Below are positions 3,372-51,176 of a DNA stretch of 64,000 nucleotides, piece after piece. Location of the stretch: assembly GCA_947085855.1 (NCBI GenBank), contig CAMTYB010000001.1, positions 564,427-628,426 of the forward strand, in the 5' to 3' direction. The stretch comes from an uncultured Candidatus Saccharibacteria bacterium (GTDB taxonomy: Bacteria; Patescibacteriota; Saccharimonadia; Saccharimonadales; 2-12-FULL-41-12). The position numbers and the translations under genes are program-made. Positions within the stretch are counted from its first letter, which is position 1. Each line of letters starts with the position of its first letter. Under the pieces are notes generated by a model. That model saw nothing but the letters and a program-made list of their open reading frames with translations, did not search any database and was not told the origin of the DNA.

Positions 3372-3410
3372 ACTTTACAAAGTATAGTTAGTATATATAC
3401 TAAGTAAAGT
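3372..3410. promoter_or_regulatory. Near-palindromic ~39-bp element in the HxlR / FMN-reductase divergent intergenic region (putative operator)
   Basis: ACTTTAC...TAGTATATATACTA...GTAAAGT inverted repeat read directly in the 67-bp intergenic region. Confidence 0.4.
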
Positions 3411-3433
3411 AACAAATAAAATAAGGATAGAAT

Positions 3434-3997
3434 ATGACAAAGATACAGATAATTACTGGCAGTACTCGACCGGGTCGATTAAACAAGCAAGTGGCCGACT
3501 GGGTTTACGAAGTTGCTCAGCAGCGCACCGATATTGAAGTAGAGCTAGTAGACATTGCTGACTACAACTTGCCGTTGCTAGATGAGCCAGCACCTCCAGC
3601 AACTGGTCAGAAAACCAAAGACCACACCAAACGTTGGGCAGCTAAAATTAGCGAAGCCGACGGCTATGTGTTTGTGACACCAGAGTATAATCATGCACCA
3701 TCAGCAGCGCTCAAAAACGCTATCGATTTTGTTAATCATGAATGGAACAACAAAGCTGTAGCCTTTGTAAGCTATGGCTGGCCAGCCAGTGGTTTGCGCG
3801 CGGTTGAACAATTGCGTCAAATTGTAGCTGAGGTTCAGTTGGCGGACATCAATAAGCATGTAGCTTTCGCTGTCGGCCAAGATTTCAAAGATGATTTTCA
3901 GACGCTCAATGCCAACGACAAGCACGTTCAGGATGCACAGGCTATGCTTGATCAGCTAGCAGCGTGGGCGGGGGCATTAAAGACAATTCGCACCTAA
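3434..3997 (+). CDS. NADPH-dependent FMN reductase (flavodoxin-like fold)
   Basis: 187 aa. TGSTRPGR...VTPEYN...SYGWPASG motifs of the FMN_red family. Confidence 0.75.
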   Translation: MTKIQIITGSTRPGRLNKQVADWVYEVAQQRTDIEVELVDIADYNLPLLDEPAPPATGQKTKDHTKRWAAKISEADGYVFVTPEYNHAPSAALKNAIDFVNHEWNNKAVAFVSYGWPASGLRAVEQLRQIVAEVQLADINKHVAFAVGQDFKDDFQTLNANDKHVQDAQAMLDQLAAWAGALKTIRT

Positions 3998-4066
3998 GTT
4001 AAACCAATTGTGCTTGCGCTGACTCCTTATCTGCGCTATATCTATGGCTAATGAGTATCAGCACAT

Positions 4067-4822
4067 ATGACTACTAGTCAGGCTTGTGAGCCTGCGCCAA
4101 TGTCACCCGAATTGGCGGTAAGGCACGCGCATCATCACGAAATTCCAGAATTTAGCGACGCTATCGATAAATGGACGGGGCGCCAACAAACCTGGGCTTG
4201 GCGTCCAGTATTCGCAGCGCTTGAGTCTGAATTGCCAACAGAACTACTAGCTATTCGTGATCATATCGTCAATGACGATGCTGCCATTGTTGAACTTGGT
4301 GGTTTAGTTATGGCCTATGCAATTCCACCCGAAGGTGAGAAACCAGACCAAGCGCAAGCTATGTTTATGCAGGCAGCACTGCGTTTTGGCGAAGCCTATG
4401 CTCATGAAGATCCAACTGTTCGATCATGTTTTGTAGACATGGCATTAGTCGATACCGATTTCTCGCTGCTCTATGCTTTGGACGCCAAGCAATTTGAGCT
4501 GCTTGAGCAACCTGATTTTGCTAAAAGCTTTATGACTGAAGTTTTGGCCGACATACCCGAAGCTTTGGACGAGATGCTTCAATTTACACCATCAGATACC
4601 CAACAGCAACACAAAACCAATGATCAAAAAGTCACGCTACTTGCTCAAGTCATGTATCGTATCCGAAATAATCTTCCACCGAAGGAAATGGTATCGTGGC
4701 TCTATAAGCCCAAGTCAGAGCTTGGCCAGAAAAGTCCGTATGAAGTTATCAATCAGCCGAAGTATGACTCGTATGAACATCGATTGCTGATGGATTTGGC
4801 ACAGCGAACTAACGCCGTTTAA
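4067..4822 (+). CDS. hypothetical protein; C-terminal region weakly resembles DUF2384 (Xre/MbcA/ParS antitoxin toxin-binding domain)
   Basis: 251 aa ORF. C-terminal W....LG.KSPYEVI pattern. No partner toxin on the same strand. Confidence 0.3.
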   Translation: MTTSQACEPAPMSPELAVRHAHHHEIPEFSDAIDKWTGRQQTWAWRPVFAALESELPTELLAIRDHIVNDDAAIVELGGLVMAYAIPPEGEKPDQAQAMFMQAALRFGEAYAHEDPTVRSCFVDMALVDTDFSLLYALDAKQFELLEQPDFAKSFMTEVLADIPEALDEMLQFTPSDTQQQHKTNDQKVTLLAQVMYRIRNNLPPKEMVSWLYKPKSELGQKSPYEVINQPKYDSYEHRLLMDLAQRTNAV

Positions 4823-5687
4823 TCATTTGCATGTATGTTTCTATAGATCTGACTGCCTTAGAAGCCAGGCTGGTAGTTTCAGCTGTAATTTCTGAATAAA
4901 TCTCAGAATAAAGAATTATTGCACGTTCATCCCAAGGCAAAGCCTCGAGGCGTCGCATCTTTCTTGCAGCGACCCATTCGTGAACATTGGTGAGGTTTGC
5001 AAACGTAATCGGCAGCTCATGTGCCTTGAGTAATGCGGTCATATGACCAATGAATTCCTCATTAGTGACATCAGCCAGAACGTAAACCGGCGTCTTTTCT
5101 TGCAGCGCCTCAGCTACAGGGCCCAATCTCTCAGGATTTGCCCAGTGCGACTCGCCAATGCGCTTGGCTTCATCATGTAGCCTATTTCTAAAATATGCGG
5201 GAGTAAATCGTAGTGGACCATTTCGGCTCACATCAGCATAGACGTCTGACAAGGCATGAGATGCGTAATCTATCACTGCCTGATCATTTGGCAGAGACTC
5301 TAGGTCGTCACCATACTCCACGATGAGTTTGCCTAAAACTGCACTACATTCGAGCACCGCAAGATTAAGGTCTGTAACGACAGGAAAACGGATATCGAGC
5401 TCGGGCAATAATGAAAGATGTGCTCCAGTGCCAACAAATAGGCCAACACCATCCGAATGTACGTCTTCAAAGCCTTCCTGGATAGCTGGCACAACTCTAC
5501 CTATCTGGCGATCATTAGTCACAATGTGCCCGGATACACGATAGCAACTCTCCGGTTCATCAGAAAAAACACCGGACAAGGCTTCGATTTGGGCAGCCGG
5601 CCCAGCGTTGTCTTGAATATTATCACCGTAGAAGAAAACTTCGGGATTAACAACACTACCTAATTTTTCAGGTTCCAAAAATGACAT
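4809..5687 (-). CDS. hypothetical cytoplasmic protein
   Basis: 292 aa ORF convergent with the previous gene. No motif recognised. Confidence 0.4.
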   Translation of the reverse strand: MSFLEPEKLGSVVNPEVFFYGDNIQDNAGPAAQIEALSGVFSDEPESCYRVSGHIVTNDRQIGRVVPAIQEGFEDVHSDGVGLFVGTGAHLSLLPELDIRFPVVTDLNLAVLECSAVLGKLIVEYGDDLESLPNDQAVIDYASHALSDVYADVSRNGPLRFTPAYFRNRLHDEAKRIGESHWANPERLGPVAEALQEKTPVYVLADVTNEEFIGHMTALLKAHELPITFANLTNVHEWVAARKMRRLEALPWDERAIILYSEIYSEITAETTSLASKAVRSIETYMQMIKRR

Positions 5688-5734
5688 AATTAGTATAAAA
5701 ATACCATAAAACTGCTAATTTGTCTATACTATTG

Positions 5735-6565
5735 CTAGGATTCGTGAAGACCAATGATATACAGCTCTTCGCCAACGCGGGCACTGTAGTGTGGGAACAG
5801 AATGCATTCATTTTTCTTGGCAAGGTATTGCTTGGGGCCATCAACGGCGATGAGTTGACCCTCGGTTAAGTTATCGAAATTCTTAAAGCCTGGCTCCAGC
5901 GTAATGGTTTCGGTGTTTTTCTTTGCGGCGTACAGGGCCTTCAGAATTTTCTTTGGTTTGTCTGAAAGGGGAACTTTTGATTCGATCATGTCGTAGTACT
6001 GCAGGAATTGGTAGATGGTTTTGACGGCGTAGTCTTTTAGCTCGCTCGATTGGCTGATCGGCCCGCATTCTACGCAGATGCCAACTTTTCCATTAAGGAA
6101 CATGTAGCCGTCACTGCCACCCTTTTCGACGTTTGTGAAGTTAGTGGCAATGAGGGGTAAGTCAAAGACACTGGCGACATCGATGGAGGGTTCTTCGCAG
6201 ATGGCAAAGGGTTCGGTATTGCCATCCGAATAAAACATGTGCAAATCAAGTAGGGCGTCGCATTGGTCGAGTACGGCCATGAGCTCACGTGCGCGAGTAT
6301 CTTCGTAGCTATCGCCATCGTTGCCGGCGAAGAAACGACGATTTAAGTTTTTGTTAATAAAGCGGACATTAGCTTCGATGGCTGGTGGATTGGCAAAAGC
6401 TAGATGCAGCGTACCTTTGGTAAGTTTTAGTTTTGGAATCAATTCCTGTAAAGCATAAATGCCGGCTCGTTCGTTGCCGTGAACTCCAGCAAAGATAGCC
6501 ACGGTAGGTCCGGGCTCTGAGCCAGCTATAGTGATGATTTCTTCTGTAATTGGTGCGATTTTCAT
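5735..6565 (-). CDS. succinylglutamate desuccinylase/aspartoacylase (AstE/AspA) family zinc hydrolase
   Basis: 276 aa. FAGVHGNERAG motif (zinc-binding His/Glu of the M14-like AstE_AspA family). Confidence 0.7.
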   Translation of the reverse strand: MKIAPITEEIITIAGSEPGPTVAIFAGVHGNERAGIYALQELIPKLKLTKGTLHLAFANPPAIEANVRFINKNLNRRFFAGNDGDSYEDTRARELMAVLDQCDALLDLHMFYSDGNTEPFAICEEPSIDVASVFDLPLIATNFTNVEKGGSDGYMFLNGKVGICVECGPISQSSELKDYAVKTIYQFLQYYDMIESKVPLSDKPKKILKALYAAKKNTETITLEPGFKNFDNLTEGQLIAVDGPKQYLAKKNECILFPHYSARVGEELYIIGLHES

Positions 6566-34414: not shown

Positions 34415-34780
34415 CTAAGAACTAGGATTGGAATTAGGTTGGTCTTGTAGGGGAAAGACAGTATCGCAAAACTCAGGAATTTCCTCAGTTGAGGCGACAG
34501 CTTCCCAGGCCGTGACTACTGCGCTACCAAGCAGGCAGGCCTCCTCTGCTGTTATTGGAGGTTCTGTTCTGTAAAGTCTCATGATCGTTGAGTCTCCTTT
34601 AGTGCGCTCGTCCTCAATATCCCCAAATTGTTTTTCAATCGATGCACCTGCTTGCAGTACTACAGCGTGCATAATTCCTTCTAGCTTTTCACGGTATTCC
34701 CGCCAGACTTTGCCTTGAGCATCGTTCTCTATTCCGGGTCGGAATTGGTCGTAGATAAAGGAAGGGTATGAGTCCGCCAT
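34415..34780 (-). CDS. hypothetical protein
   Basis: 121 aa ORF between the two repeat copies. Confidence 0.4.
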   Translation of the reverse strand: MADSYPSFIYDQFRPGIENDAQGKVWREYREKLEGIMHAVVLQAGASIEKQFGDIEDERTKGDSTIMRLYRTEPPITAEEACLLGSAVVTAWEAVASTEEIPEFCDTVFPLQDQPNSNPSS

Positions 34781-34843
34781 ATTTTCTCCATATGATTAAA
34801 ACTTAAGTACAATTATAACATTTGTTTTAATATATTACAAATT

Positions 34844-34860
34844 TAGCAGAGGGCAGGACT
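34844..34860. other. 17-nt imperfect copy (TAGCAGAGGGCAGGACT) of the 3-prime end of the tRNA at 51102..51176 (TAGCGGGGGCAGGACT); candidate distal att remnant
   Basis: Exact 10-mer GGGCAGGACT plus flanking TAGC shared with the tRNA gene. Sits at the low-G+C transition just before the SIR2 gene. Confidence 0.35.
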
Positions 34861-34940
34861 ATAGTTTCTCGCTGGGTTCGACATACTATTCTCGCTAACC
34901 GCTCGATTATTGAACGTTCGCAGCCTAGACTCTGCACAAG

Positions 34941-34988
34941 AAAAAAGCCCCAACTTTCGTTGAGGCGTTTTTCTTGGTAGAGCATGTC
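34941..34988. repeat. copy 2 of the ~48-bp repeated terminator-like element
   Basis: See copy 1. Confidence 0.6.
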
Positions 34989-35179
34989 GGTCTGGAACCT
35001 CACTATAGAGGTGAGTGAGACAAATGAGACACAGAACGCCTTAAAAGGGGATGTTTCATTTTTTGCTGGCTAACAGTTATGTTTATGACATACATATCGT
35101 AAAACCGAACAAATCCCGCACTTGCTCCGCTTAATAGTATTATTCCATCGGAATAGCCACTGAATCCTTGCGAAAGTGG

Positions 35180-36211
35180 CTATTTTGCTTTCTGCTCGGC
35201 ATCAATAAGCGGCTTATACCACTTAGCCATGTCGTCAAAATTGGCAAAGGCCTGCGGCACAGGATTATTGGATATAAACTTAGCTTCCCAGTACTGATTC
35301 CAGTAAGCCTCAATTGAACGTCGAGGATGTTTGGTAATGAATGAGTCATAAAAACTATCAAGCACATCAAAGTGGTGGGTATGGATAAAGGGGTCCCAGG
35401 TTTCCCGAAGCTTATCATGATCGGCACCCGGGCGGTTGATAATTTCAGTCTGCTCCATTGCCCGGTCATTGTTATCACCCCAGCCTTTCTTTAGTAGCTC
35501 AATGGCCTCTTTGTCAGTTGTTGGAGCACTATAGCCAAAGGCCGTAAACATGAAACAACCCTTCAAATAAAATCGGGCTGCCTGCCACTCGCGTTTAATG
35601 AAGCTGTCTGCCTGATAATCTTTGTTTTCAACCGGGTATAGTAACTCAGAAGGCATGAATGGTTCCCGGCACTTGCTACACGGTCGACCAGCCAACCCGC
35701 TCGTATTGTCTTTCCCGCAGAAGCCCACAGTTACATTACCATGTAAAAAGAACAGCTTCGGGAAGCTCGTGGTAATGCCAAGTTTAGCTAGCCGGATTCG
35801 GGATTGCATCAAAAACGGATCCCAATTAAACGTAAAAATAGCATCTTTATCACGCAGGGATAGATTGATTATGTCGTATAGGTTCGGCTCATCCGTCAGC
35901 TCAAGCTCCGAAAAATATTCACGCACCAGTGAATCAATCTTGCGCAATTCTTCAGATGGACCTAAGCCGAACAGTTTTGAATAAGCAGCCTCAAAATCTT
36001 GTACTGCCAGTACTTTTAAGTTGTCAGGAAATAGGTCTACCAGCTTTAGACCTTCGGCTACATCGCGAAGCAGCGGTACTGTCCGGCCATACTTATCACC
36101 GTCAGGCAAGGCGGCTTTACTTGCTCCAGCCCCCAGTAGAAGTACATGCGGCTTACCATGAAACGGGTTAGCAATTTCCTGTTCAACGGTGATTTCGTAG
36201 CCAGACGTCAT
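35180..36211 (-). CDS. SIR2-family (SIR2_2 / ThsA-like NADase-type) domain protein, stand-alone
   Basis: VLLLGAGASKAA (GAGxS), IFTFNWDPF (TTNYD-equivalent), FFLHGNV (HG motif), CFMFTAFGYSAPTTD (ThsA FLFVGFSFTDPNLD) with ThsA-like spacing. 22 nt downstream of the LexA-like gene. Confidence 0.65.
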   Translation of the reverse strand: MTSGYEITVEQEIANPFHGKPHVLLLGAGASKAALPDGDKYGRTVPLLRDVAEGLKLVDLFPDNLKVLAVQDFEAAYSKLFGLGPSEELRKIDSLVREYFSELELTDEPNLYDIINLSLRDKDAIFTFNWDPFLMQSRIRLAKLGITTSFPKLFFLHGNVTVGFCGKDNTSGLAGRPCSKCREPFMPSELLYPVENKDYQADSFIKREWQAARFYLKGCFMFTAFGYSAPTTDKEAIELLKKGWGDNNDRAMEQTEIINRPGADHDKLRETWDPFIHTHHFDVLDSFYDSFITKHPRRSIEAYWNQYWEAKFISNNPVPQAFANFDDMAKWYKPLIDAEQKAK

Positions 36212-36233
36212 ATAAAAGCCTTTAATTCATTAG

Positions 36234-36875
36234 CTAAGAGGCTAGTAACTCTGGTTTCCGTACGACTTGAATTACGGTACCACCAATTAAACCCTCCCAA
36301 TTATCTTGAGGATTTATGACTATCGGTTGAAAATCTTGCGAAGACTCAGAATGCAATACTATCAGCTCGTTTTCATAATCAAAATGGACACTTTTTATAT
36401 TTGATAGTCCTTCATGAATCACCGTCACTACCTCACCTTCTTTAGGTGTCTTTTTAGAACTGTCTACGATTACGTATGCTCCATTTTCTATATGATTTCC
36501 TCTAATTTTAGCTTTATTCATGGATTCGCCATCTACTTCTAATGCATAGAGGTCACTATAATTTGAGTTAGGCAGTAAAGATGCAGAAACTTTTAGAGTT
36601 CCAAGTTCATCTGATCCTGCAACGTGAGTTGCTGGTCCAGCATTTGCCTTTCCAAGAATTGGAATAGTAACTAAGCGAGCAGTTGTAGCGACTATGTTGC
36701 CCGCATTGCTAATGAGCCCTTCTTCCTTAAGCTTAATAATAATGTTCTTAACAATTTGCGGGTGCACGGAGCCACTGACTGGATTGGCTATTTGACGGCC
36801 AATTTCCCTATAACTCAGCTTATTGATATCCATCACCCGTGCTAAGCGTTGTATTTTTTCACGAGTTTCTAACAT
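36234..36875 (-). CDS. LexA-like / phage CI-like repressor (N-terminal winged HTH + C-terminal S24 self-cleaving peptidase)
   Basis: 213 aa. LexA-type DNA-binding domain (REIGRQIA....KLKEEGLI), Ser-Lys dyad GESM...(~25 aa)...KK. Confidence 0.7.
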   Translation of the reverse strand: MLETREKIQRLARVMDINKLSYREIGRQIANPVSGSVHPQIVKNIIIKLKEEGLISNAGNIVATTARLVTIPILGKANAGPATHVAGSDELGTLKVSASLLPNSNYSDLYALEVDGESMNKAKIRGNHIENGAYVIVDSSKKTPKEGEVVTVIHEGLSNIKSVHFDYENELIVLHSESSQDFQPIVINPQDNWEGLIGGTVIQVVRKPELLAS

Positions 36876-36937
36876 ATTCCTATATTAACAGAGGAGAAGC
36901 GTATTCGTCAATTAGAGTTGATTAACTATATTATTCT

Positions 36938-36966
36938 TGACAGCCCCCTGTCAAAACTCCTATAAT
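36938..36966 (+). promoter_or_regulatory. consensus sigma-70-type promoter (TTGACA-17 nt-TATAAT) whose -35 lies inside a perfect palindrome TTGACAG-CCCC-CTGTCAA (putative operator of the adjacent LexA-like repressor)
   Basis: TTGACA 36938..36943, palindrome 36938..36955, TATAAT 36961..36966, read directly. Divergent from the repressor gene. Confidence 0.6.
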
Positions 36967-37098
36967 TATTGGTAGCTAATGTGTGAAATAAACATATAGC
37001 AAAATCGCCGCGAAAGCCCTAGGAAAGCACAAACGCAGCGATTTATTGGACGATTGAGTCGTCCTCTCTATATTAACAAATAATGGAGGGTAAACACC

Positions 37099-37212
37099 AT
37101 GGGTAAAACCACCAAACCAACACCAAAGTATCGAGACGCCGGCTCAGGCCAATACGTCAAACCTTCATATGCGAAATCGCATCCGAAGACAACGGTTAAG
37201 GAGAGCAAATAA
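37099..37212 (+). CDS. small Lys/Pro-rich protein (37 aa) with a strong Shine-Dalgarno, first gene of the repressor-controlled rightward transcript
   Basis: GGAGGG 8 nt upstream of the ATG. Stop overlaps the next ATG (TAATG). Confidence 0.35.
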   Translation: MGKTTKPTPKYRDAGSGQYVKPSYAKSHPKTTVKESK

Positions 37213-37475
37213 TGGCTGACCGAGCAGTTAACCGGGCACGACATGATAGCGACGGCGATGTCACTGCAATCGGTAATCCAATCATGGCATGGTCGCCTCG
37301 TCTGAAGCGCGACGCGATCGATGACATAGAAAATGATGTGCACACCTATTATGTTCCGTGGAAAGTCAGTGGGCGATCGGAAATCAGAGTGGTTAATGGC
37401 CCTAACGGTAAGTATCTGCGAACTGATCGAGACGATACCCCAAAAAACAATCTTGATGATTTGGATGAGTGTTAG
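37212..37475 (+). CDS. small acidic hypothetical protein (possibly DUF3892-like)
   Basis: 87 aa ORF translationally coupled to the preceding small ORF. Confidence 0.35.
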   Translation: MADRAVNRARHDSDGDVTAIGNPIMAWSPRLKRDAIDDIENDVHTYYVPWKVSGRSEIRVVNGPNGKYLRTDRDDTPKNNLDDLDEC

Positions 37476-37716: not shown

Positions 37717-39060
37717 ATGAATAGTTCACTTTCAAATCAAAACAAAAATATCCAAATTAAATCAGTTAAAGTCAGCGAGCTAAAGGCAGCTGAATATAAC
37801 CCTCGCAAATGGAGTGAAAACTCCATAGCGCAACTAACAAAAAGCATTCAGCAGTTCGGATTAGTTGATCCTATTCTTGTAAATGGCTCTCCCGCAAGGA
37901 AGAACATCGTAATCGGCGGGCACTTCCGGCTAAAGGTTGCTAAGGATCTCGGCTATAAAGAAGTTCCGGTTGTCTATTTGCATATTCCGGATATTGAGCG
38001 GGAGCGAACACTTAACTTGCGGCTTAACAAAGCGGTCGGAGACTGGGACTGGGATTTACTCAAGGAATTTGATGAGTCACTATTAGATGAAGTTGGTTTC
38101 ACCAGTGAAGAACTTGATACCATCTTTGATCTCGATGATGACGAACCGGAGCAATTCGACCTCGATAAGGAACTCAAGAAATTAAATATTTCTGAAATCA
38201 AAGTTAAAAAAGGTGACGTCTACCAGCTGGGTGATTCCAGACTTATGTGTGGAGACTCAACCATTGAAGCAGAAATGCTGAAATTAATGAACGGCGAAAA
38301 AGCCGATATGTGCCTAACTGATCCTCCGTATATTTTAGATTATCTAAAAAGCGGTATTCGAAAAGGCAAACCAACTGAAGGCTTTGGTGCAAAACGCAAT
38401 CGTAAATATCTGGAAACTGACGAATTGCCGGACGACTTTACCGAACTGTGGATGGGCGGTATAGCAAAAATTGCAAAACCGGACTTCAGTATTATCGTAT
38501 ACGAAAATTGGAAGAATATCCCAGTTATCTGGGAAGAAATGGCTAAACGCTGGAAAGTAAAAAACATGATTGTTTGGCATTTGCCGAACCGACACCAAGG
38601 GTTCGGTGGTAAGTATAAGTTCTTCTCCAAACACGATATCGCGATGGTCGGTGCCAGCGGAGAAGTGCAATATAACCACGAAACTGAACCGGATGGTTTG
38701 CAGGAAGAGTATGAAACAGCTTTGTATGCGATAGCTGGGAAGCCCCATTGGCAAAACTACTCAAAAGGTAAACATCAACCAACTGACTTTATCGACTTCA
38801 ACGCAGCAGATGAAAAAAGCAGCGGGCAGGGAATCATATTCGGAGTAAAGCCACTTGAGATACTGATTCCATATATAAAGGTACTCACTAAACGCGGTGA
38901 CCTTATAGTTGAACCGTTCTGTGGCAGTGGCAGTACGCTTTGTGCCGCGACGAAGCTAAAACGCCGATGCTACATAATGGAAAAATCTCCGGTGTATGCT
39001 GAGGTGGCCATGGACAGATGGGAGAAAATGACTGGGCTAAAACGAAAGAAACTGTCATGA
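37717..39060 (+). CDS. ParB-like nuclease domain fused to an N6/N4 DNA methyltransferase (phage-type orphan MTase)
   Basis: N-terminal ParB/Srx fold (IVIGGHFRL). MTase motifs DPPY (CLTDPPYI) and FCGSGST. Confidence 0.8.
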   Translation: MNSSLSNQNKNIQIKSVKVSELKAAEYNPRKWSENSIAQLTKSIQQFGLVDPILVNGSPARKNIVIGGHFRLKVAKDLGYKEVPVVYLHIPDIERERTLNLRLNKAVGDWDWDLLKEFDESLLDEVGFTSEELDTIFDLDDDEPEQFDLDKELKKLNISEIKVKKGDVYQLGDSRLMCGDSTIEAEMLKLMNGEKADMCLTDPPYILDYLKSGIRKGKPTEGFGAKRNRKYLETDELPDDFTELWMGGIAKIAKPDFSIIVYENWKNIPVIWEEMAKRWKVKNMIVWHLPNRHQGFGGKYKFFSKHDIAMVGASGEVQYNHETEPDGLQEEYETALYAIAGKPHWQNYSKGKHQPTDFIDFNAADEKSSGQGIIFGVKPLEILIPYIKVLTKRGDLIVEPFCGSGSTLCAATKLKRRCYIMEKSPVYAEVAMDRWEKMTGLKRKKLS

Positions 39061-39458
39061 GTACGGCTACTAATAAAACGAAGGTGCTAGAGCAGCTCCG
39101 TAAAACTCCGCTGGTGCAAGTTGCTTGCCAGCGGGCGGGGATTGGCCGGGCAACCTATTACCGTTGGTTGAAAGCCGATGAAGCGTTTGCCGAAGCAGCT
39201 TTCGAAGCAATAGATCAGGGCACATCACTGGTAACAGATATAGCCGAAAGTCAGCTTATTAATGCCATTAAAGACCAGAATATGACGGCGATTATCTTTT
39301 GGCTGAAGCACCACCATGCAGCTTATGAAACTAGAGTCAGAGTTGATGGCCGGATAAAGCATCAAACCGAAGAATTAACACCCGAGCAGTCCGATTTGAT
39401 TGAGCGGGCTCTTAAAAACGCTGGCTTACTGCTGGCAGAAAGTGAGACAATCGAATGA
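39057..39458 (+). CDS. terminase small subunit-like HTH protein
   Basis: 133 aa. HTH QVACQRAGIGRATYYRWLK. ATGA overlaps with both the MTase stop and the TerL start. Start moved to the Met that overlaps the MTase stop. Confidence 0.45.
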   Translation: MSTATNKTKVLEQLRKTPLVQVACQRAGIGRATYYRWLKADEAFAEAAFEAIDQGTSLVTDIAESQLINAIKDQNMTAIIFWLKHHHAAYETRVRVDGRIKHQTEELTPEQSDLIERALKNAGLLLAESETIE

Positions 39459-41017
39459 AATACGAATCACCCTTCTCGCCTGAACTATGGCGGGAGATAA
39501 AAACTACGCGAAGTGTGCGTGTGAAGCTAGCTAGTGAGAGTTTATATAACTTTGCACACATCTATTTTCCAGGATACTTTGGATATGCAACTGCACCGTT
39601 CCAGCGTGAAATGTATATGATGCTAGAAGATCCAAATATTCGTCATCTTGGTATTGTCAGTTTTCGTGGTAGCGGTAAATCCAGTATTGTAACCACGTTC
39701 TTCTTGATGTGGGCAATACTCGGCAAGCAGCAAAAGAAATACGCTCTAATAGCCAGCCAAACTCAAGTCCAAGCCCGTAAGCACTTAGCTAATGCCAAAC
39801 AGGAATTTGATAGCAACGAACTGCTTGGAGATGACTTTGGTCCACTTAAGGAAACCAGTGATGAATGGGGTTCAATGTCACTGGTGCTACCAAAATACGG
39901 TGCACGAATCAGTGCCGTATCAAGCGAGCAAAGCATCAGAGGTACCAGGCACGGTTCACACAGGCCTGATCTAGTAATTGCCGATGATGTTGAAGACCTG
40001 CAATCGGTTAAAACTAGTGAAGGCCGGGAGAAAACCTTTAACTGGTATACCAGTGAGATATTGCCAGTTGGCGATCATACAACTAAGTTTGTATTGATAG
40101 GTAACTTACTTCATACCGACTCACTGATGATGCGGATGAAAGCCTTTAGCGAACGTCAGGCTGATCGATTTGTATTCAAAGAGTATCCTCTGCTCGATGA
40201 AAACGGAGTTTGTTTGTGGCCTGGTAAATATGACACCCCGGAAGCTATTGCGCGGGAAAAGATGGAGGCACCGAGCGAACGGGCATATTACCGAGAGTAT
40301 CTGCTAAAAATTCTGCCTGACAATATGCAGATAGTTAAGCCAGAAAACATTAAATATTACGATAATATTCCTCAGCAGCTGGCTGGCGGTTCATACCGCG
40401 TGGCAATTAGCGTTGACTTAGCAATATCCAAGAAAACCTCTGCCGATTATACGGCAATTGTCGTACTTGAAAAGCATGGCTACGGCAAAGATACCAAAAT
40501 CTACGTTCATCCTTACCCGATTAATAAGCGTAATCTCTACAGCGAAACCGTTCAGGACATAGCTTCTCTAAAAGCCCGACATACTTCAGCCGACATATAT
40601 ATTGAAGATGTAGGCATGCAGCGGGCTATTATAGAAATGTTAAAGCAAGAAAATATACCAGCTGAAGCAGTTCCGCTTAATGGGCGGGATAAAGAAGAGC
40701 GCTTGCAGGTGGCTTCCTTTTGGATTATTAATGGTACCGTTCAGTTTCCATACGAGGGCTGTCAAAAACTACTGGAACAAGTCATTGGTTTTGGGGTTGA
40801 AAGAGATGACCTTCTGGACGCGCTAACGCTCGGCATCATTCACCTTATGGAACAAAAGAATAAAGGACCAAGTATACGAGTTGGGTCAATTAGAGGGACG
40901 GTGTTTGACCGAGATATGCGTATGAAGTCAGTTTTTAGCGGAGCAGGTCGTTACCGCGTGTCTACTGCTTCAGATGAAGCTTTCTTCAGCTCGCCCACGG
41001 GGATTAGCATTTATTGA
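39455..41017 (+). CDS. phage terminase large subunit
   Basis: Walker A VSFRGSGKSS, Walker B LVIADDVED, C-terminal RNase-H-like nuclease Asp residues (ISVDLA, IEDVG, LDALTLG). Confidence 0.75.
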   Translation: MKYESPFSPELWREIKTTRSVRVKLASESLYNFAHIYFPGYFGYATAPFQREMYMMLEDPNIRHLGIVSFRGSGKSSIVTTFFLMWAILGKQQKKYALIASQTQVQARKHLANAKQEFDSNELLGDDFGPLKETSDEWGSMSLVLPKYGARISAVSSEQSIRGTRHGSHRPDLVIADDVEDLQSVKTSEGREKTFNWYTSEILPVGDHTTKFVLIGNLLHTDSLMMRMKAFSERQADRFVFKEYPLLDENGVCLWPGKYDTPEAIAREKMEAPSERAYYREYLLKILPDNMQIVKPENIKYYDNIPQQLAGGSYRVAISVDLAISKKTSADYTAIVVLEKHGYGKDTKIYVHPYPINKRNLYSETVQDIASLKARHTSADIYIEDVGMQRAIIEMLKQENIPAEAVPLNGRDKEERLQVASFWIINGTVQFPYEGCQKLLEQVIGFGVERDDLLDALTLGIIHLMEQKNKGPSIRVGSIRGTVFDRDMRMKSVFSGAGRYRVSTASDEAFFSSPTGISIY

Positions 41018-41065: not shown

Positions 41066-41536
41066 ATGGAAGAAGGCAAAGCATTAAATTCAATGGCAAA
41101 AAGCGCAACGCTTCATTGTCTAACAGGTTGTGCGATCGGTGAAATTTTAGGTCTCGTCATTGGAACAGCGATAGGGCTTAGCACTATAGCTACAATTGCC
41201 TTAGCAGTTACATTAGCCTTTTTCTTTGGGTTTTTACTGTCAACACTGCCATTACTTAAAGTAGGGTTAGGTTTCTTCTCCGCGCTCTCAATAGTTTTTG
41301 CCGCTGACACATTGTCAATCGCAACTATGGAGGTGGTAGACAACGCAGTGATGGCTATAATACCCGGGGCAATGGAAGCAGGATTGGTTAATCCGCTTTT
41401 TTGGATCAGTATGCCGATTGCATTGACAGCAGCATTTTTTGCGGCTTACCCCGTAAATAAGTATCTATTAAAAAGAAATAAAGGCCATGCGTTGACCATG
41501 AAGTATCACGAAGGTCATGGAAGCCACCAGCATTAG
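41066..41536 (+). CDS. DUF4396-like membrane protein with a C-terminal His-rich tail (metal-associated)
   Basis: 4 TM helices and a YHEGHGSHQH C-terminus. Precedes csoR. Confidence 0.5.
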   Translation: MEEGKALNSMAKSATLHCLTGCAIGEILGLVIGTAIGLSTIATIALAVTLAFFFGFLLSTLPLLKVGLGFFSALSIVFAADTLSIATMEVVDNAVMAIIPGAMEAGLVNPLFWISMPIALTAAFFAAYPVNKYLLKRNKGHALTMKYHEGHGSHQH

Positions 41537-41546
41537 GAGAATTACT

Positions 41547-41831
41547 ATGACTAAATATGGATACGCCGAAAATAAAGTTTCAATCAATAAGCGACTTAAA
41601 CGAGCCGAAGGTCAGGTACGCGGTATTGCGAGAATGGTCGAAGAAGACAAATACTGTATAGATATACTAACTCAAATCACAGCAGCACAAGCCGCCTTGG
41701 ATAAGGTTGGTTTGCAACTACTATCTGAGCATACTAAGCACTGTCTATCGAATTCAAAAATCGGACCAAATGGCATTGATGAAAAGGCCGATGAAATGGT
41801 GAGCGCAGTAGGTAGAATGCTATCTCGATAA
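41547..41831 (+). CDS. csoR: CsoR/RcnR-family copper-sensing metalloregulator
   Basis: YCIDIL...EHTKHC (Cys-His-Cys triad). AGGAGA SD 7 nt upstream of the chosen ATG. Confidence 0.8.
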   Translation: MTKYGYAENKVSINKRLKRAEGQVRGIARMVEEDKYCIDILTQITAAQAALDKVGLQLLSEHTKHCLSNSKIGPNGIDEKADEMVSAVGRMLSR

Positions 41832-41853
41832 ATTAATTTACTAGGAGAATATT

Positions 41854-42258
41854 ATGGAAACTAGATCACTATTAATAGGAATTAGCAGCTTTATGGCTGG
41901 AGGCTTGTTAGTCTCAATTGCTGCAGTTACATTTGAAAAAGATAAGGAGACTGCATCAAATAGCTCTATGTCGTCTAGTATGCAGATGTCAGCAGATTCA
42001 TTAAAAGGTAAGAGCGGTGATGACTTTGATAAATCATTTATTACTGAAATGATTGCTCATCATGAAGGAGCAGTTGAAATGGCTAAATTAACTTCATCAA
42101 ATGCCAAACACGATGAAATAAAACAGTTATCTAACGATATAATTTCAGCCCAAGAAAAAGAAATTGGTCAAATGAAGCAGTGGCAAATGGATTGGGGTTA
42201 TAATAACTCTAATGACACTATGCAAATGGATCACTCAAAAATGAATATGGGACAATAA
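41854..42258 (+). CDS. DUF305 four-helix-bundle (copper-binding) secreted protein
   Basis: DFDKSFITEMIAHHEGAVEMAKL....IISAQEKEIGQMKQW motif. Confidence 0.7.
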   Translation: METRSLLIGISSFMAGGLLVSIAAVTFEKDKETASNSSMSSSMQMSADSLKGKSGDDFDKSFITEMIAHHEGAVEMAKLTSSNAKHDEIKQLSNDIISAQEKEIGQMKQWQMDWGYNNSNDTMQMDHSKMNMGQ

Positions 42259-42259
42259 C

Positions 42260-42655
42260 TTGGTCAAACCGAAACGGCTTGTAGATATTGCTGCAATAAT
42301 AGGCGTAATCTTCTTTATAGCTATAGTCGTTTATTTATCAAATAAAGAAGAACCAAAAGATAATCAACAGTTAAGTAATGTGAACGCAGCTCAGACGATT
42401 TACTATAATGATGGTGGATTTGATAAGGCATCAGTAACGATTGCTAAGGGTGAAACCGTAAAGTTTGTAAACAATACCGACAATGATCTATGGGTTGCTT
42501 CAGATCCCCACCCTCGCCATACTGATTTGCCAGGATTTGACGCACTCGGTCGAGCAAACGATGAATACGTATTTACATTCGATAAAGCTGGGACTTGGAA
42601 ATATCATAATCATAGCGCGGCAAGCCGTGAGGCCACAGTCGTGGTTACTGAGTAG
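42260..42655 (+). CDS. membrane-anchored cupredoxin-like domain protein (type-1 Cu site apparently lacking Cys)
   Basis: ETVKFVNNTD......GTWKYHNHSAASREATVVV resembles a plastocyanin-like strand pattern without the Cys ligand. Confidence 0.35.
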   Translation: MVKPKRLVDIAAIIGVIFFIAIVVYLSNKEEPKDNQQLSNVNAAQTIYYNDGGFDKASVTIAKGETVKFVNNTDNDLWVASDPHPRHTDLPGFDALGRANDEYVFTFDKAGTWKYHNHSAASREATVVVTE

Positions 42656-43552
42656 ATGAAACGTATTCTAAGTCCCAAATTGATTCTAATAATAAGCGCG
42701 TCGATAGTTCTTTTACTATCCCTCCTTATATTTAGACCGAAAGAAAAAACAGTGACTCAAAAAACGCTTACACCAGTTGCTTCAATTACGCACGCTCATG
42801 GTTTAGCAGTTAACCCAACTGATAATAGCAAAATATATATAGCTACTCATGAAGGTTTGTTTACACTAATTGATGAGAAGGAAATGTACCAGGTAGGCCA
42901 GAGCAAAGACGATTACATGGGGTTTACGGCGCACCCAAATAATCCAGATATTTTTTACAGTAGCGGTCACCCTGTGGCTGGCGGAAATATTGGATTTCAA
43001 AAATCTACTGATGGAGCATTTGAATGGAAGAAAGTTTCTGACGGAAATGAAGGACCAGTTGACTTTCATGCCCTTACAATCAGCCCTATTGATACTAATT
43101 TACTTTATGGTTGGTACAGAGGTAATATTCAAAGGTCTACAGATGAGGGTAACACGTGGCAAAGTATCCGGACTGCAAATCCAATTGTAAATCTTGTAGC
43201 CGATACAGCTGATAAAGATACGCTCTATGCGTCTGGCCCAAGAGGATTACAAAAGAGTACGGATGGTGGTCAGACGTTCACTACACTATTAGTTGGCTTC
43301 ACTTCGGCAATAGCGGTGAACCCAAGCAACGCAAAGCATGTCTTTACTTACAATGAAAAACTTCAGTTGGCTGAGAGTAAAGACGGCGGCCAAACCTGGC
43401 AAACTCGCCCTCAGGACTTTTCAGGCCAGACACCGTTGTTTATGGCGTTTTATAAAGCTGATCCAAAGATAGCCTATTTACTGACCGAAAAAAGTAATTT
43501 GTTCAAAAGTACTGATGGTGGCCAAACCTGGTTAAATATTACGAAATCGTAA
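42656..43552 (+). CDS. BNR/Asp-box repeat beta-propeller protein (Ycf48/sortilin-like), secreted
   Basis: Repeated STDGG(Q)TW / STDEGNTW Asp-box motifs. Confidence 0.6.
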   Translation: MKRILSPKLILIISASIVLLLSLLIFRPKEKTVTQKTLTPVASITHAHGLAVNPTDNSKIYIATHEGLFTLIDEKEMYQVGQSKDDYMGFTAHPNNPDIFYSSGHPVAGGNIGFQKSTDGAFEWKKVSDGNEGPVDFHALTISPIDTNLLYGWYRGNIQRSTDEGNTWQSIRTANPIVNLVADTADKDTLYASGPRGLQKSTDGGQTFTTLLVGFTSAIAVNPSNAKHVFTYNEKLQLAESKDGGQTWQTRPQDFSGQTPLFMAFYKADPKIAYLLTEKSNLFKSTDGGQTWLNITKS

Positions 43553-43560
43553 AAGTTATC

Positions 43561-44238
43561 TTACATCGACATTTGATGACCTTGCATCGAAGGTCCGCTT
43601 GAGCTAATATCATAACCCCACATCTTTGCCCAATCTTGCATATTGCCGATTTCAAGTGTCTGAGCATTAAAGATGTCTTCACTTAATTTTTTGATTTCAT
43701 CATGTTTGGCATTTTGGGCTGACTGGTTTGCCATATCGATTGCGCCCATATGATGGGCAACCATATCAATAATAAACTGCTTATCTAAATCGTCACCGGT
43801 TTTACCTTTCAGGCTCGCGGCCATAGCATCAATACCAGACTGACTCGGTTCTTTGTATTCATAACCCCACATCTGCGCCCAGCTTTTCATATCGGCAATT
43901 TCTCTAGTTTGCGCTTCAATAATTTGTCCGGCAAGCGTACGCAGTTCAGTGTGTTTGGCTTCCGTATCAACGAGCTGTGCCATAGCAATGGCACCCGCAT
44001 GATGTTCCGACATTAAGGTGATAAATGCCTTATCATATTCATCTCCAGTTTTTCCTTTCAATCCATCCGACATAGACATCATGGAAGAATTAAGGCTATT
44101 TTGGTCATTTGATGGAGCAGAGTTATTAGTCTGCTCTGCTTTCTTATCATCCTTTTTTAACGCCGCAGTTCCTGCACCTGCTAAGGCTAGTAAAATTATT
44201 ACCCCTATTAAAATTGTTAACTTTTTTGATTTACTCAT
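43561..44238 (-). CDS. secreted protein with two tandem DUF305 domains
   Basis: Two copies of D..F...M..HH.GAI.MA.....AKH.E.......I...Q..EI..M..W. Confidence 0.7.
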   Translation of the reverse strand: MSKSKKLTILIGVIILLALAGAGTAALKKDDKKAEQTNNSAPSNDQNSLNSSMMSMSDGLKGKTGDEYDKAFITLMSEHHAGAIAMAQLVDTEAKHTELRTLAGQIIEAQTREIADMKSWAQMWGYEYKEPSQSGIDAMAASLKGKTGDDLDKQFIIDMVAHHMGAIDMANQSAQNAKHDEIKKLSEDIFNAQTLEIGNMQDWAKMWGYDISSSGPSMQGHQMSM

Positions 44239-44251
44239 AAAATATTCTCCA

Positions 44252-44815
44252 TCAGGCCGTAGCCTTATTAGGTATGCTTGTTATTCGGATTAATGTTGGC
44301 GCTGCTTTATATATTGATCGTAACGCTATCATAATTGCCAAAACGTTAAGTCCAATTGTTAACATCTGCAACCGGCTATAACCTGCTCCTATGTAACTTC
44401 CCCCAGTTCCACCAACAAGACTTATAAGCGGTGCAAGTAAAGATCCCCCGCACGCTATGCAGTGCGAACTGATGAGCATGGTAAGTGTACCAGCAACCCT
44501 GCCTTTAGTCGATTTTGTCACGTTACGCATAAAGCGTATGACTTGAAAGTTAACCGCTAAAACTACAGACAGAATAAAAATACTAAAGGTTACTGGTTCA
44601 AAGAAAAAGCGTATAACACTCGCGTAAATATCTGTCAAAAAACCTAGTTTATCCAGCGGTGAAAGCAATGGTTGGTTAAATGTTAACTCCAAAATGAGCG
44701 CGATATTTGGTACTAATAACAAAAAACTTAATACTAAAAACCAATAGTATACAAAGCGTCCCCTTTCACCGGGTAAGCTAAGTAATCTTGCAATTGCTGT
44801 TGGTATACGTTTCAC
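44252..44815 (-). CDS. polytopic membrane protein with a CIACGG motif
   Basis: 187 aa, 5 hydrophobic segments. Confidence 0.4.
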   Translation of the reverse strand: MKRIPTAIARLLSLPGERGRFVYYWFLVLSFLLLVPNIALILELTFNQPLLSPLDKLGFLTDIYASVIRFFFEPVTFSIFILSVVLAVNFQVIRFMRNVTKSTKGRVAGTLTMLISSHCIACGGSLLAPLISLVGGTGGSYIGAGYSRLQMLTIGLNVLAIMIALRSIYKAAPTLIRITSIPNKATA

Positions 44816-44824
44816 GGATTTATC

Positions 44825-45352
44825 TTATGCACCTGCCTCAGGTGCTTTGCCGACATTTTGTCGGTACTGATCCATCAGTTTTTGCTCATCATAATTATCG
44901 AATTCAACGATATGATTCCATGATGCCATTACGATCGGTTTTTCTTGACCTTCCCTTGGCATAACTAATGCTTCAGATGACTGAAAATCTTTACGAGCAA
45001 ACGGTTTTGTAAATAAGCCCTTAAGCTTTTGCACTGTAGCCGGATCTGTATCGGGGCGATAGCTTATGACAACGCCACCATGCTCAAGGTTGTGAATATA
45101 GTCTTGAGCAGGTAGTTCTGATGGGTAGGCTTGATACGGAGCCACAACAGTATGTGGACCCGAGGTAGGTATTTCTGCCTTGTAATCCTTATACTCAGGT
45201 TGTCCTTGTTCGAGGTGATCGCGACCTTCATCGGCTTGATCATGCCCCAGGCGGCTTACCGGCGGCGGGGCGTCCTTCTTTTGAAATGCAAGTAAGCTAG
45301 CCATTCCAATGACCGCGAATGCAATAATTCCTATAAAAACTTTGTTTGACAC
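44825..45352 (-). CDS. DUF3105 domain membrane-anchored protein
   Basis: TSGPH...YIHNLEHGGVVISY motif typical of DUF3105. Confidence 0.55.
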   Translation of the reverse strand: MSNKVFIGIIAFAVIGMASLLAFQKKDAPPPVSRLGHDQADEGRDHLEQGQPEYKDYKAEIPTSGPHTVVAPYQAYPSELPAQDYIHNLEHGGVVISYRPDTDPATVQKLKGLFTKPFARKDFQSSEALVMPREGQEKPIVMASWNHIVEFDNYDEQKLMDQYRQNVGKAPEAGA

Positions 45353-45433
45353 GTTGTAAGCTCCAGTTAGTTAAACATTAAAATATACAGTCAAACCGAA
45401 ATAAATCGACATGACTTAAATAATGAATAAGGC

Positions 45434-45790
45434 CTAGTTTCGGAATTTACCGTATTCGAGTATTAGATCTGGCGGTCTACGTTTCAAATATGCCCAAAAT
45501 AAGACAGCGAAGGCGAGGCTATATGCAAAGTTTGTTAAAACAAGTTGGTTCTTTAAAATAGCAAAAGCTGGATACGGATCGTTATCTTCTTCTTCAATCT
45601 GTGGTTGCTGTTGCTTACCATTAACCATTGGAGCACAAACAGATTGGCACGGGTTATTATGACTCATCTTCATGCTGTCGTGAGGCATAGTTTGTTGCAT
45701 CAGAAGAGAATGGCCTGCGCCGACACCTAAAACGAGAACTAATCCGGTAGCTAAAGCTAGAAGTAATTTATGCAATTTTTTATGTATCAT
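45434..45790 (-). CDS. Met/His-rich small membrane protein (candidate Cu-binding)
   Basis: MQQTMPHDSMKMSHNNPCQSVCAPM stretch between two TM helices. Confidence 0.4.
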   Translation of the reverse strand: MIHKKLHKLLLALATGLVLVLGVGAGHSLLMQQTMPHDSMKMSHNNPCQSVCAPMVNGKQQQPQIEEEDNDPYPAFAILKNQLVLTNFAYSLAFAVLFWAYLKRRPPDLILEYGKFRN

Positions 45791-47379: not shown

Positions 47380-48660
47380 TTGTGTTGTATGGAAACAAAA
47401 GCACCCGAACTCAAATACTGTCTGTATGCACGTAAATCGAGCGAATCAGACGAACGACAGATAATGTCGATTGATTCACAGCTTAACGAAATGAAGCTGA
47501 TTGCTCAAAAAGAAGGGTTGAATATAGTAAAAATCTTAGAGGAGAGTCACTCCGCTAAAGAATCGGGTAAGCGCCCAATCTTTAATGAGTTACTTAGTGG
47601 ATTTAGAAATGATGAGTATAACGCATGCTTAACGTGGGCACCTGATAGAATGAGCAGAAATGCCGGGGATTTGGGGTCACTAGTAGACCTTATGGATAGT
47701 AAGAAGCTAGCTCAAATCCGTACGTATTCGCAGACGTTTACAAATAATCCTAATGAAAAGTTCCTTCTGATGATTCTCTGCTCACAGGCCAAGCTTGAAA
47801 ACGATAACCGCGGCTTGAATATTCTACGAGGTATTAAAAATAAATGTGAAATGGGATGGCGGCCTGGCGTTGCACCACTAGGTTACATGAATCGCCACTT
47901 TGGAGGGGTTAAAGATATAATACCCGATCCAGATAGAGCACATGTCATTACGGAGATATATCAGAAAGCTGGCTATCACGGCTGGAGTGGTCGGCGTTTG
48001 AAAGAATGGTGCGACGAAATAGGTTTCACGAATCGGTCAGGCAAACCAGTAGCTTTGAGTCAAATCTTCTTGATTCTCATGAACCCGTTCTACTACGGTG
48101 AATTTGAGTATCCAGAAGGTAGTGGCAAATGGTTTAAGGGATCGCACGAGCCCTTAATATCCAAAGATATGTACGAACTTGTCCAACAATTTAGAGGAGC
48201 ATATAAAGGTAAATGGGGATCCAAACAGTTTGCGTACCGCGGTTTATTGCAATGTGGACACTGTGGAGGTGAAGTTACAGCAGAGGAGAAATTTAAAAAA
48301 CTTAATAACGGTGAAATTAACCGTCATGTATATTATCGATGCACAAAGAAAGTAGATTTAAAATGTCCAGAAAAGTACGTGAATGAAAAAATACTTGAAG
48401 AATTAATAGAGAAATTTATTACTCAGAATTTGGTGAAGCTCAAGATTGCAGATTCACTCAGAATAGATATTGAACGGCACTATGTTGTAGCTGAATCACT
48501 TGCCGATTACTACAAAGTATCGATGAAACTAGATAAGCCGCTGATTGAATACACGCGCTATGTGGTAACAAAAGGCAGGTTTGAAGAAAAAGTTGCTTTT
48601 ACAAAGGGCATTACTAGTAAGCTACTTATTAAAGATGGAGAAATTGTTTTTGCGAAGTAA
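47380..48660 (+). CDS. large serine recombinase (resolvase catalytic domain + recombinase domain + zinc ribbon/coiled coil)
   Basis: YARKSSESD....SIDSQ catalytic Ser region, Cys pairs CGHCGG....C..C. Confidence 0.75.
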   Translation: MCCMETKAPELKYCLYARKSSESDERQIMSIDSQLNEMKLIAQKEGLNIVKILEESHSAKESGKRPIFNELLSGFRNDEYNACLTWAPDRMSRNAGDLGSLVDLMDSKKLAQIRTYSQTFTNNPNEKFLLMILCSQAKLENDNRGLNILRGIKNKCEMGWRPGVAPLGYMNRHFGGVKDIIPDPDRAHVITEIYQKAGYHGWSGRRLKEWCDEIGFTNRSGKPVALSQIFLILMNPFYYGEFEYPEGSGKWFKGSHEPLISKDMYELVQQFRGAYKGKWGSKQFAYRGLLQCGHCGGEVTAEEKFKKLNNGEINRHVYYRCTKKVDLKCPEKYVNEKILEELIEKFITQNLVKLKIADSLRIDIERHYVVAESLADYYKVSMKLDKPLIEYTRYVVTKGRFEEKVAFTKGITSKLLIKDGEIVFAK

Positions 48661-51101: not shown

Positions 51102-51176
51102 TGGTAGCGGGGGCAGGACTCGAACCTGCGACCTTGTGGTTATGAGCCACACGAGCTGCCACTGCTCTACCCCGCG
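51102..51176 (-). tRNA. tRNA-Met (CAT), initiator-like
   Basis: The reverse complement CGCGGGGTAGAGCAG...GGCTCATAACC...GGTTCGAGTCC...CCCCGCTACCA closely resembles E. coli tRNA-fMet, including an unpaired C1 (C1:U72). Confidence 0.8.

Follow-up and report, generated by a model that had tools for sequence, protein, structure and literature searches.

A chromosomal locus of an uncultured Candidatus Saccharibacteria bacterium appears to combine the repressor region of a mobile element with an interchangeable cargo position, which in this genome is filled by a gene for a stand-alone SIR2-like protein. We analyzed a 64,000-nt stretch of the genome (contig CAMTYB010000001.1, positions 564,427 to 628,426; the window, whose own numbering is used below, with related loci given L numbers and related proteins P numbers). 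Both genes in question lie on the minus strand, at 36234-36875 (213 aa) and 35180-36211 (343 aa), with a gap of 22 nt, just as a first-pass annotation of this DNA had placed them. We consider it reasonably probable that they belong to a compact, terminase-encoding integrative element whose LexA-like S24 repressor heads an operon with a swappable slot, and that the SIR2-like cargo of this slot is likely an NAD+-consuming anti-phage effector. The first-pass annotation had instead seen a dedicated pair, a SIR2 effector gated by an SOS-cleavable repressor of its own. That proposal does not hold up against the related loci, where the SIR2-like gene mostly stands without an S24 gene and the repressor is followed by varied cargo or by none.

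The case for a slot comes from the genes found immediately downstream of the S24 gene on the contigs of repressor homologs, which we inspected for 11 related loci. One locus (L087) encodes two PycC cyclases (PADLOC E values 5e-52 and 2e-57) and PycTM, a Pycsar system, and another (L115) encodes SMODS, ThiF and JAB proteins, a type II system for anti-phage signaling based on cyclic oligonucleotides (CBASS). Elsewhere the position is taken by a DUF2130 gene (L083), by genes for a 397-aa protein, a Macro protein and a 603-aa protein (L086), by genes for unknown proteins of 332 and 224 aa in a locus whose backbone order is identical to that of the window (L113), or by a DUF2188 gene and one for a 1261-aa protein (L091). 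Behind a distant repressor homolog in L111 lie an imuA-like gene, a 420-aa gene and dnaE2, an SOS mutagenesis cassette, and in L092 and L109 the S24 gene has no cargo. The gaps between S24 and cargo genes are 6-33 nt. The slot thus often holds bona fide defense systems.

Cargo also moves independently of its regulator. The gene for the 397-aa protein directly follows S24 in L086 and follows the SIR2-like gene in L002, L004 and L005; the SIR2-like coding sequences of the window and L001 share 90% nucleotide identity that ends at the borders of the coding sequence, and the repressors of the same two loci are just 46% identical in amino-acid sequence. GC content differs too, at 39.3% for the repressor gene and 46.3% for the SIR2-like gene. 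Because the cargo varies, the 397-aa gene changes place, and the identities and GC contents of repressor and SIR2-like genes differ, we regard the repressor as a constant feature of the element and the slot as exchangeable. The 397-aa protein belongs to a family of 397-483 aa that occurs repeatedly in the slot (L086:6664-7857, L002:4575-5765, L005:7030-8220 and L004:1820-3268) and has no hit in Pfam or PADLOC; it is another candidate defense gene. In L086 the gene for the Macro-domain protein comes after it. In L111 (717-4755 and 5001-10636) the gene for the distant repressor homolog has a divergent QatABCD system on one side and the imuA-like, 420-aa and dnaE2 genes downstream, which means that an immune system and an SOS cassette meet at a LexA-type gene.

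A SIR2-like gene is directly preceded by an S24 gene only in the window and in four other loci, L001, L002, L004 and L005, all from Saccharibacteria. Two further loci from the candidate phyla radiation (CPR), one from Peribacteria and one from Falkowbacteria, also have a neighboring S24 gene, though oriented differently, and 74 of 81 SIR2-like loci have neither an S24 neighbor nor any other common partner. What recurs with the repressor is a mobile-element backbone, which we define as a small open reading frame (ORF), DUF3892 or DUF2188, a ParB-methylase, small and large terminases (TerS and TerL) and a serine recombinase. The block TerL-TerS-ParB/methylase-...-S24-SIR2 is common to the window, L001 and L002, and the backbone is shared with L113 and L115 as well. 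Homologs of the recombinase accompany S24 in L083, L086, L091, L092 and L109, and in L003 one adjoins the SIR2-like gene. GC content across the element stretch is 41%, against 46-47% for comparison. With mobile-element genes flanking the pair, the earlier placement at the edge of a mobile island is borne out, and the assignment of the locus as a regulatory region at the edge of a mobile element is supported.

The 213-aa protein (36234..36875, minus strand) has a winged helix-turn-helix (HTH) at its N-terminus and its cleavage site at Ala79-Gly80, and contains Ser118 and Lys161 in its S24 domain. It matches Peptidase_S24 in Pfam (E 5e-13) and the phage repressor family phrog_4 in PHROGs (2e-13). 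Its family profile aligns to residues 39-198 of E. coli LexA, a region that spans part of the winged HTH, the Ala-Gly cleavage site, Ser119 and Lys156, and the top PDB matches of the profile are all LexA or UmuD; the LexA-type winged HTH and S24 domain that had been read from the sequence at first pass are thus confirmed. Across 25 aligned homologs there is no variation at G80 (in PILG.AN[A/C]GPA), S118 (GESM) or K161 (NIK), and residue 79 is either Ala or Cys. Since K161 aligns to LexA K156, it is the dyad lysine, paired with S118; the GESM serine had been named correctly at first pass, and the KK lysines (141-142) proposed as its partner are not conserved. Against the TIGR00498 lexA equivalog its score is 38.5 bits, under the cut-off of 110.95, so that the protein has a LexA-like architecture yet falls outside the LexA equivalog. 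These features support its identification as a LexA-architecture repressor that is probably autocleavable.

The 343-aa protein (35180..36211, minus strand) is a member of a large uncharacterized family and, as the operon's cargo, consists of an N-terminal SIR2 core with no additional Pfam or PADLOC domain. It has no match in Pfam, PADLOC, NCBIfam, PHROGs, or phmmer and profile searches of the PDB; the thresholds for SIR2 (PF02146) and SIR2_2 (PF13289) were not reached, and there were no Pfam hits even at E <= 0.1. Alignment by hhalign to a PGAP-annotated SIR2 protein covers residues 7-75 only, the GAGAS region, at a probability of 28%. An AlphaFold2 model built from 32 homologs is confident (predicted local distance difference test score 87.7, predicted template modeling score 0.88), and structure comparison of this model reveals a recognizable Rossmann-type SIR2 fold with defense SIR2s as its best structural matches. 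Because none of the hidden Markov model (HMM) libraries and PDB sequence searches finds SIR2, the identity of the protein as SIR2-like rests on predicted structure. The HMM and PADLOC searches suggested in the first-pass annotation thus returned Peptidase_S24 for the repressor and neither SIR2_2 nor a PADLOC model for its neighbor, and the SIR2 motifs listed there are all four present and conserved, in a protein that is not 'clear' SIR2 by sequence.

Those motifs, G27AGAS, T127FNWD, L156HGNV and FGYSAP..D233, are invariant or nearly so in the 32 homologs: G27, A28, G29, N129, D131, H157 and G158 do not vary, S31 hardly varies, and most positions of FGYSAP..D233 are near-invariant. Equivalence to the catalytic residues of sirtuins was assigned by motif and fold, without residue-level structural alignment. 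Features specific to the family are a Cys-containing insert, the residues C165, C178 and C181, and a C-terminal region of its own of about 85 aa with a His cluster and an invariant HPRR at 295-298. A SIR2 fold with an intact active site is well supported by the model and the motif conservation, and from these we infer that the protein may act as an NADase.

The two genes are arranged as an operon. The spacer between them (36212..36233, minus strand) contains an AAAGG ribosome-binding site, and a consensus scan of its minus strand detected no promoter-like and no terminator-like site; in orthologous loci the S24/SIR2-like gap is about 1-13 nt, shorter than the 22 nt of the window. The first minus-strand terminator-like hairpin, followed by a T-run, lies 3' of the 343-aa gene at 34966-34947, about 215 nt beyond its stop codon, and is the probable operon end. 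This spacing suggests that the repressor and SIR2-like genes would be co-transcribed.

Upstream of the repressor gene, a perfect 18-bp palindrome, TTGACAG-CCCC-CTGTCAA (TTGACAGCCCCCTGTCAA; 36937-36954), is a putative operator that feeds the -35 hexamers of two overlapping, divergent promoters. The rightward promoter of the backbone genes (36937..36966, plus strand, TTGACA-18-TATAAT) matches the consensus at 12/12 positions, and the distal promoter of the repressor (36925..36954, minus strand, TTGACA-18-TATAGT) at 11/12. The divergent, palindrome-embedded promoters described at first pass are therefore present, with spacers of 18 nt in both rather than 17 nt. The ATG of the repressor gene comes 6 nt after the end of a proximal promoter (36882..36911, minus strand, TG-extended TTGACG-18-TAATAT), which would yield a near-leaderless mRNA. 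The palindrome is perfect, as first noted, and single-copy in the window, and is not by itself statistically unusual: perfect 7-bp palindromes with loops of 0-12 nt number 99 in the 64-kb window, about 0.36 per 230 nt, so that finding one here is not beyond chance. It gains weight because both of its arms are -35 hexamers and because TTGACA-N4-6-TGTCAA recurs in the intergenic regions of 3 of the 4 closest orthologous loci. We aligned the intergenic regions of the four loci with repressors at least 64% identical (window, L083, L092 and L109). The right arm TGTCAA is invariant in all four and the left arm TTGAC is kept in three, around a G/C-rich spacer of 4-6 nt; the palindrome is semi-conserved in L083 and L092, and the proximal promoter block ATTGAC...TCTGTTA..AT-ATG is invariant across the four. 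With TTGACA supplied on both strands, the control region looks autoregulated, as had been suspected, and we propose that the repressor may bind the palindrome and repress both promoters.

Between the rightward promoter and the first gene it serves lies a conserved, structured leader (36985..37090, plus strand) with hairpins at about 37002-37044 and 37048-37064. RNAalifold, applied to the four leaders (window 36985-37090 (+), L083:5779-5885(-), L092:464-572(-) and L109:4807-4915(-)), predicts 19 pairs, 6 of them with compensatory changes, and the second hairpin looks like a terminator or attenuator because a T-rich run follows it. A search of 34700-37300 against Rfam gave no match above noise; the leader could work by attenuation or antitermination, or could be a small RNA belonging to the element. 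The intergenic region has a copy of the 11-mer CTATATTAACA (TGTTAATATAG on the opposite strand) at each end, at 36880-36890 and 37068-37078, and the two are conserved in related loci. The proximal repressor promoter has one of them as its -10 element, and the other adjoins the small ORF's ribosome-binding site; the sequence may be a second site for protein binding or a third promoter, which would face the repressor.

The SIR2-like family is large and widespread. More than 4300 clusters at 90% identity match it, all the named ones as 'hypothetical protein', and an exhaustive HMM search at E <= 1e-3 yielded at least 1308 clusters at 50% identity, 409 of which reach E <= 1e-30. Most members are 330-350 aa long, and a minority have N- or C-terminal extensions of 100-190 aa; ten extended proteins gave no hit in Pfam. 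The N-terminal extension of P0187 and the C-terminal extension of P0229 apparently are the same domain of about 100 aa, with the shared motifs ...VEEI..H.E.G.L...G[VI][RK]NNGL..L... and likewise no Pfam match, which may be a sensor or partner domain. The family is encoded in at least 586 GTDB species, spread patchily over many bacterial phyla and a Methanolinea archaeon, and identities of up to 60-76% across phyla indicate horizontal transfer.

Neighbor clustering in 80 SIR2-like loci revealed no conserved neighboring gene family. In the sample of loci whose defense context was assessed, by running 134 neighbor proteins against Pfam and PADLOC, flanking genes include those for Mrr and ResIII restriction enzymes, methylases, integrases, Fic proteins, AbiEii-like ATPases and MADS/PDC candidates. 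On the Vibrio plasmid pOCN014 the family gene shares an island with genes for McrBC, for a SLATT protein and for a SIR2 family protein, and on the Legionella plasmid pLPL it has umuDC on one side and a type I-F cas operon on the other. The gene also occurs at moron positions on 16 IMG/VR viral contigs, after tail genes or beside serine recombinases. In the pLPL locus (L081, Legionella pneumophila, 451-5924) umuD and the genes for an SRAP peptidase and a Y-family polymerase lie directly upstream of the SIR2-like homolog, and an HTH gene and then the type I-F cas operon follow it. This layout is found on three Legionella plasmids, another juxtaposition of the family with SOS-type genes and a defense system.

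We propose the following model for the element, which would be a prophage remnant or a satellite-like element in the Saccharibacteria chromosome. The S24 repressor would act at the back-to-back overlapping promoters by binding the TTGACA-N4-TGTCAA palindrome, and would thereby shut both the rightward backbone operon (small ORF, DUF3892, ParB-methylase, TerS and TerL) and its own leftward operon. Since the SIR2-like gene rides in the repressor transcript, its product would be made whenever the element is quiescent, at an autoregulated basal level. DNA damage could then, through RecA-stimulated autocleavage of the repressor, possibly cause a transient rise from the negatively autoregulated promoters. 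The SIR2-like protein most likely acts alone as an NAD+-consuming abortive-infection effector, a role suggested by its fold, motifs and context, and candidate infection sensors within it are the family-specific C-terminal region and the Cys-containing insert. These considerations make the SIR2-like gene a good candidate for a new single-gene phage defense, and not half of a dedicated two-gene system.

Several observations weigh against this model. At the level of sequence the 343-aa protein matches no SIR2 or defense model, and the family, with identities of 41-92% across phyla and 75 invariant columns, is unusually conserved for a defense gene; it is found in 0 of 50,697 deposited phage genomes. 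The exact palindrome has no second copy within the 64-kb window and is absent from four SIR2-bearing orthologous loci. No structural genes follow TerL, and the window contains no complete prophage, so that the element is only tentatively called a remnant or a satellite. Finally, the sequence is compatible with either derepression or basal co-expression as the relevant mode.

The dedicated two-gene immune system of the first-pass annotation, in which S24 silences a toxic NADase until DNA damage or prophage induction, has real points in its favor: the pair is kept in five Saccharibacteria genomes despite repressors that are 43-50% identical, S24 is found near the SIR2-like gene in other orientations in the Peribacteria and Falkowbacteria loci, the palindrome overlaps both -35 hexamers, and regulators of such logic are known upstream of immune operons. 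We nonetheless judge it unlikely, given that 74 of the 81 SIR2-like loci lack an S24 neighbor or any other shared partner, that repressor homologs with other cargo or none always keep the element backbone, and that the SIR2-like coding sequence was apparently exchanged independently of the repressor. We also considered a toxin-antitoxin pair and rejected it, since with a single shared transcript both genes would be lost together.

Other explanations concern the identity of each protein. The S24 protein might serve the genome as its housekeeping LexA, with the SIR2-like gene simply belonging to the chromosomal SOS regulon; this would account for the full LexA architecture, the exclusively LexA and UmuD top matches in the PDB, the distant member in a classical imuA-imuB-dnaE2 mutagenesis cassette (L111) and the label LexA that JGI gives to homologs. 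We find it highly improbable: the protein scores far under the TIGR00498 cut-off, its gene is non-syntenic between genomes and always beside recombinase, ParB-methylase or terminase genes, its low GC content of 39% fits the island, and the palindrome occurs just once in 64 kb. The 343-aa protein, for its part, might be a sirtuin-like NAD-dependent deacylase or ADP-ribosyltransferase with a conserved cellular or element substrate, and its gene an accessory gene. Its best structural matches are defense SIR2s, its distribution is patchy and transfer-prone and includes defense islands and mobile elements, sister elements hold Pycsar or CBASS in the same slot, and the Cys residues are missing from some members such as P0194, all of which make such an enzyme a rather unlikely alternative to the effector that we propose.

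A close precedent for an effector in a repressor operon is phage lambda, whose prophage repressor operon, cI-rexA-rexB, carries exclusion genes. The Saccharibacteria locus shares with it an autocleavable S24 repressor, divergent promoters, a possible near-leaderless transcript, an accessory gene in what would be the same transcript, and phage-type neighbors, and with co-transcription judged from spacing it has the properties of a prophage or mobile-element repressor operon with a defense moron of the cI-rexAB type. It differs from lambda in its LexA-type winged HTH in place of a CI-type HTH, in the absence of capsid and tail genes from the element, in its SIR2-fold enzyme as cargo, and in a single clear putative operator where lambda has OR1-OR3. 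In phage Fc02, too, an accessory gene is co-transcribed downstream of a repressor (PMC9936078).

DNA-damage-responsive regulators encoded upstream of immune operons form a second group of precedents, namely CapH/CapP, CapW/BrxR and CapK/CapS. Like them, the S24 repressor gene stands just upstream of interchangeable immune operons (CBASS, Pycsar and others) and has a plausible DNA-damage input. Their families are unrelated to it: single-chain S24 autoproteolysis would here do the work of a metallopeptidase-HTH pair, a WYL domain or a kinase-STAS pair, and the S24 regulator is tied to the element backbone and also occurs without cargo. The CapK/CapS paper mentions neither LexA nor S24. Bona fide LexA (TIGR00498) shares the winged HTH, the linker, the Ala/Cys-Gly cleavage site and the Ser-Lys dyad; the present repressor differs in its score below the equivalog cut-off, in being mobile-element-borne and non-syntenic, and in its putative operator, TTGACA-N4-TGTCAA as opposed to CTGT-N8-ACAG.

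Compared with the SIR2 proteins of SIR2-HerA (Nezha), the SIR2 domain of ThsA, KomC of Kongming, the SIR2-STAND protein Avs5, and DSR2, the 343-aa protein has neither a partner nor a fused sensor: HerA, SLOG, TIR, STAND and the DSR2 C-terminal domain are all missing. Thoeris ThsA needs a C-terminal SLOG/Macro domain and a neighboring TIR protein (ThsB), neither of which is present at the window locus, and SIR2-HerA needs an adjacent HerA, of which there is none in the window or in 80 related loci. The earlier observation that no TIR, HerA, pAgo or SLOG partner is encoded nearby is thus correct, none being found among the neighboring genes. DSR1, DSR2 and Avs5 have large fused sensor regions of about 1000 aa or a STAND NTPase, in contrast to the 330-350 aa of the present family and the 100-190-aa extensions of its few longer members. 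Another similar system is sole-Sir2, a CRISPR-supervised single-gene SIR2 system with reported activity from NAD+ to ADP-ribose and a homolog that protects against T2 and T4 (bioRxiv 10.1101/2024.12.27.630466). In both cases one stand-alone SIR2-like protein is proposed to act in defense. By description the two differ in architecture, sole-Sir2 being about 440 aa long and having its SIR2 domain at the C-terminus, behind a putative sensor at the N-terminus, as opposed to 343 aa with SIR2 at the N-terminus.

Stand-alone SIR2 defense, repressor-linked defense cargo and DNA-damage-gated immune operons are therefore known already, and because stand-alone SIR2 defense and DNA-damage-responsive regulation of immune operons have precedents, the first-pass description of the architecture as undescribed was overstated. 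What is new is an unannotated, very widespread SIR2-fold family, the placing of a variable immune slot behind a LexA-type S24 repressor, and the occurrence of both in CPR bacteria. The family is large, conserved and found in defense-type contexts, is missed by current domain and defense databases, and is readily testable because its members are small, encoded by single genes and have invariant catalytic motifs. The phage defenses of CPR bacteria and Saccharibacteria are poorly known, and the slot behind the LexA-like element repressor is a defense hotspot among them; since it holds recognizable Pycsar and CBASS systems, it could be used to find defense genes by association, with the DUF2130 protein, the 397-aa family, and the 332-aa and 1261-aa proteins as slot-associated candidates. 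If confirmed, the S24 autoprotease would be a further type among the regulators that are known to precede immune operons. We put forward only tentatively the combined proposal that LexA-type S24 repressors of mobile elements in Saccharibacteria and other CPR bacteria are a further class of DNA-damage switches over a hot-swappable immune slot (Pycsar, CBASS, SIR2-like), and that the family of about 340 aa is a self-sensing, single-gene, NAD+-depleting defense.

The remaining genes of the element lie to the right of the control region, on the plus strand. A conserved small ORF (37099..37212; 37 aa, MGKTTKPTPKYRDAGSGQYV...) leads the rightward operon; its stop codon overlaps the start of the next gene (TAATG), and it has homologs in the same position in L083 and L092. 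Its product is a conserved basic protein of 37-43 aa with the motif YR[DN]A..GQ[YF]V.P.YA..HP.TTV.ES, and may act as a partner to the S24 repressor in the manner of Cro or of an antirepressor. Next come the backbone genes for a DUF3892 protein (37212..37475), in the same position in L083-L085 and L092, and for a fusion of ParB_N with an N6/N4 DNA methylase (37717..39060), conserved in L001, L002, L086, L091, L113 and L115. The terminase genes follow (39018..41017; small 39018-39458, large 39455-41017; phrog_38 at 2.6e-81). This module of ParB-N6/N4 methylase and small and large terminases (37717-41017) recurs beside S24 in the same six loci, and portal, capsid and tail genes do not follow it. 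The conservation of so truncated a set suggests a mobile element that is functional, whether satellite-like or unusual in some other way, and not random decay of a prophage.

A large serine recombinase gene (47380..48660), with homologs beside the S24 gene in related loci, likely encodes the integrase of the element. As an att repeat for the tRNA-Met gene at 51102-51176 we found only a 13-mer inside the ORF at 23741, which we judged to be a chance match. Between the terminase and recombinase genes, at 41066-45790, the window encodes DUF4396, DUF305 (two copies), a BNR-repeat protein and DUF3105, a cluster that looks like metal-homeostasis cargo of the copper type, not like phage genes.

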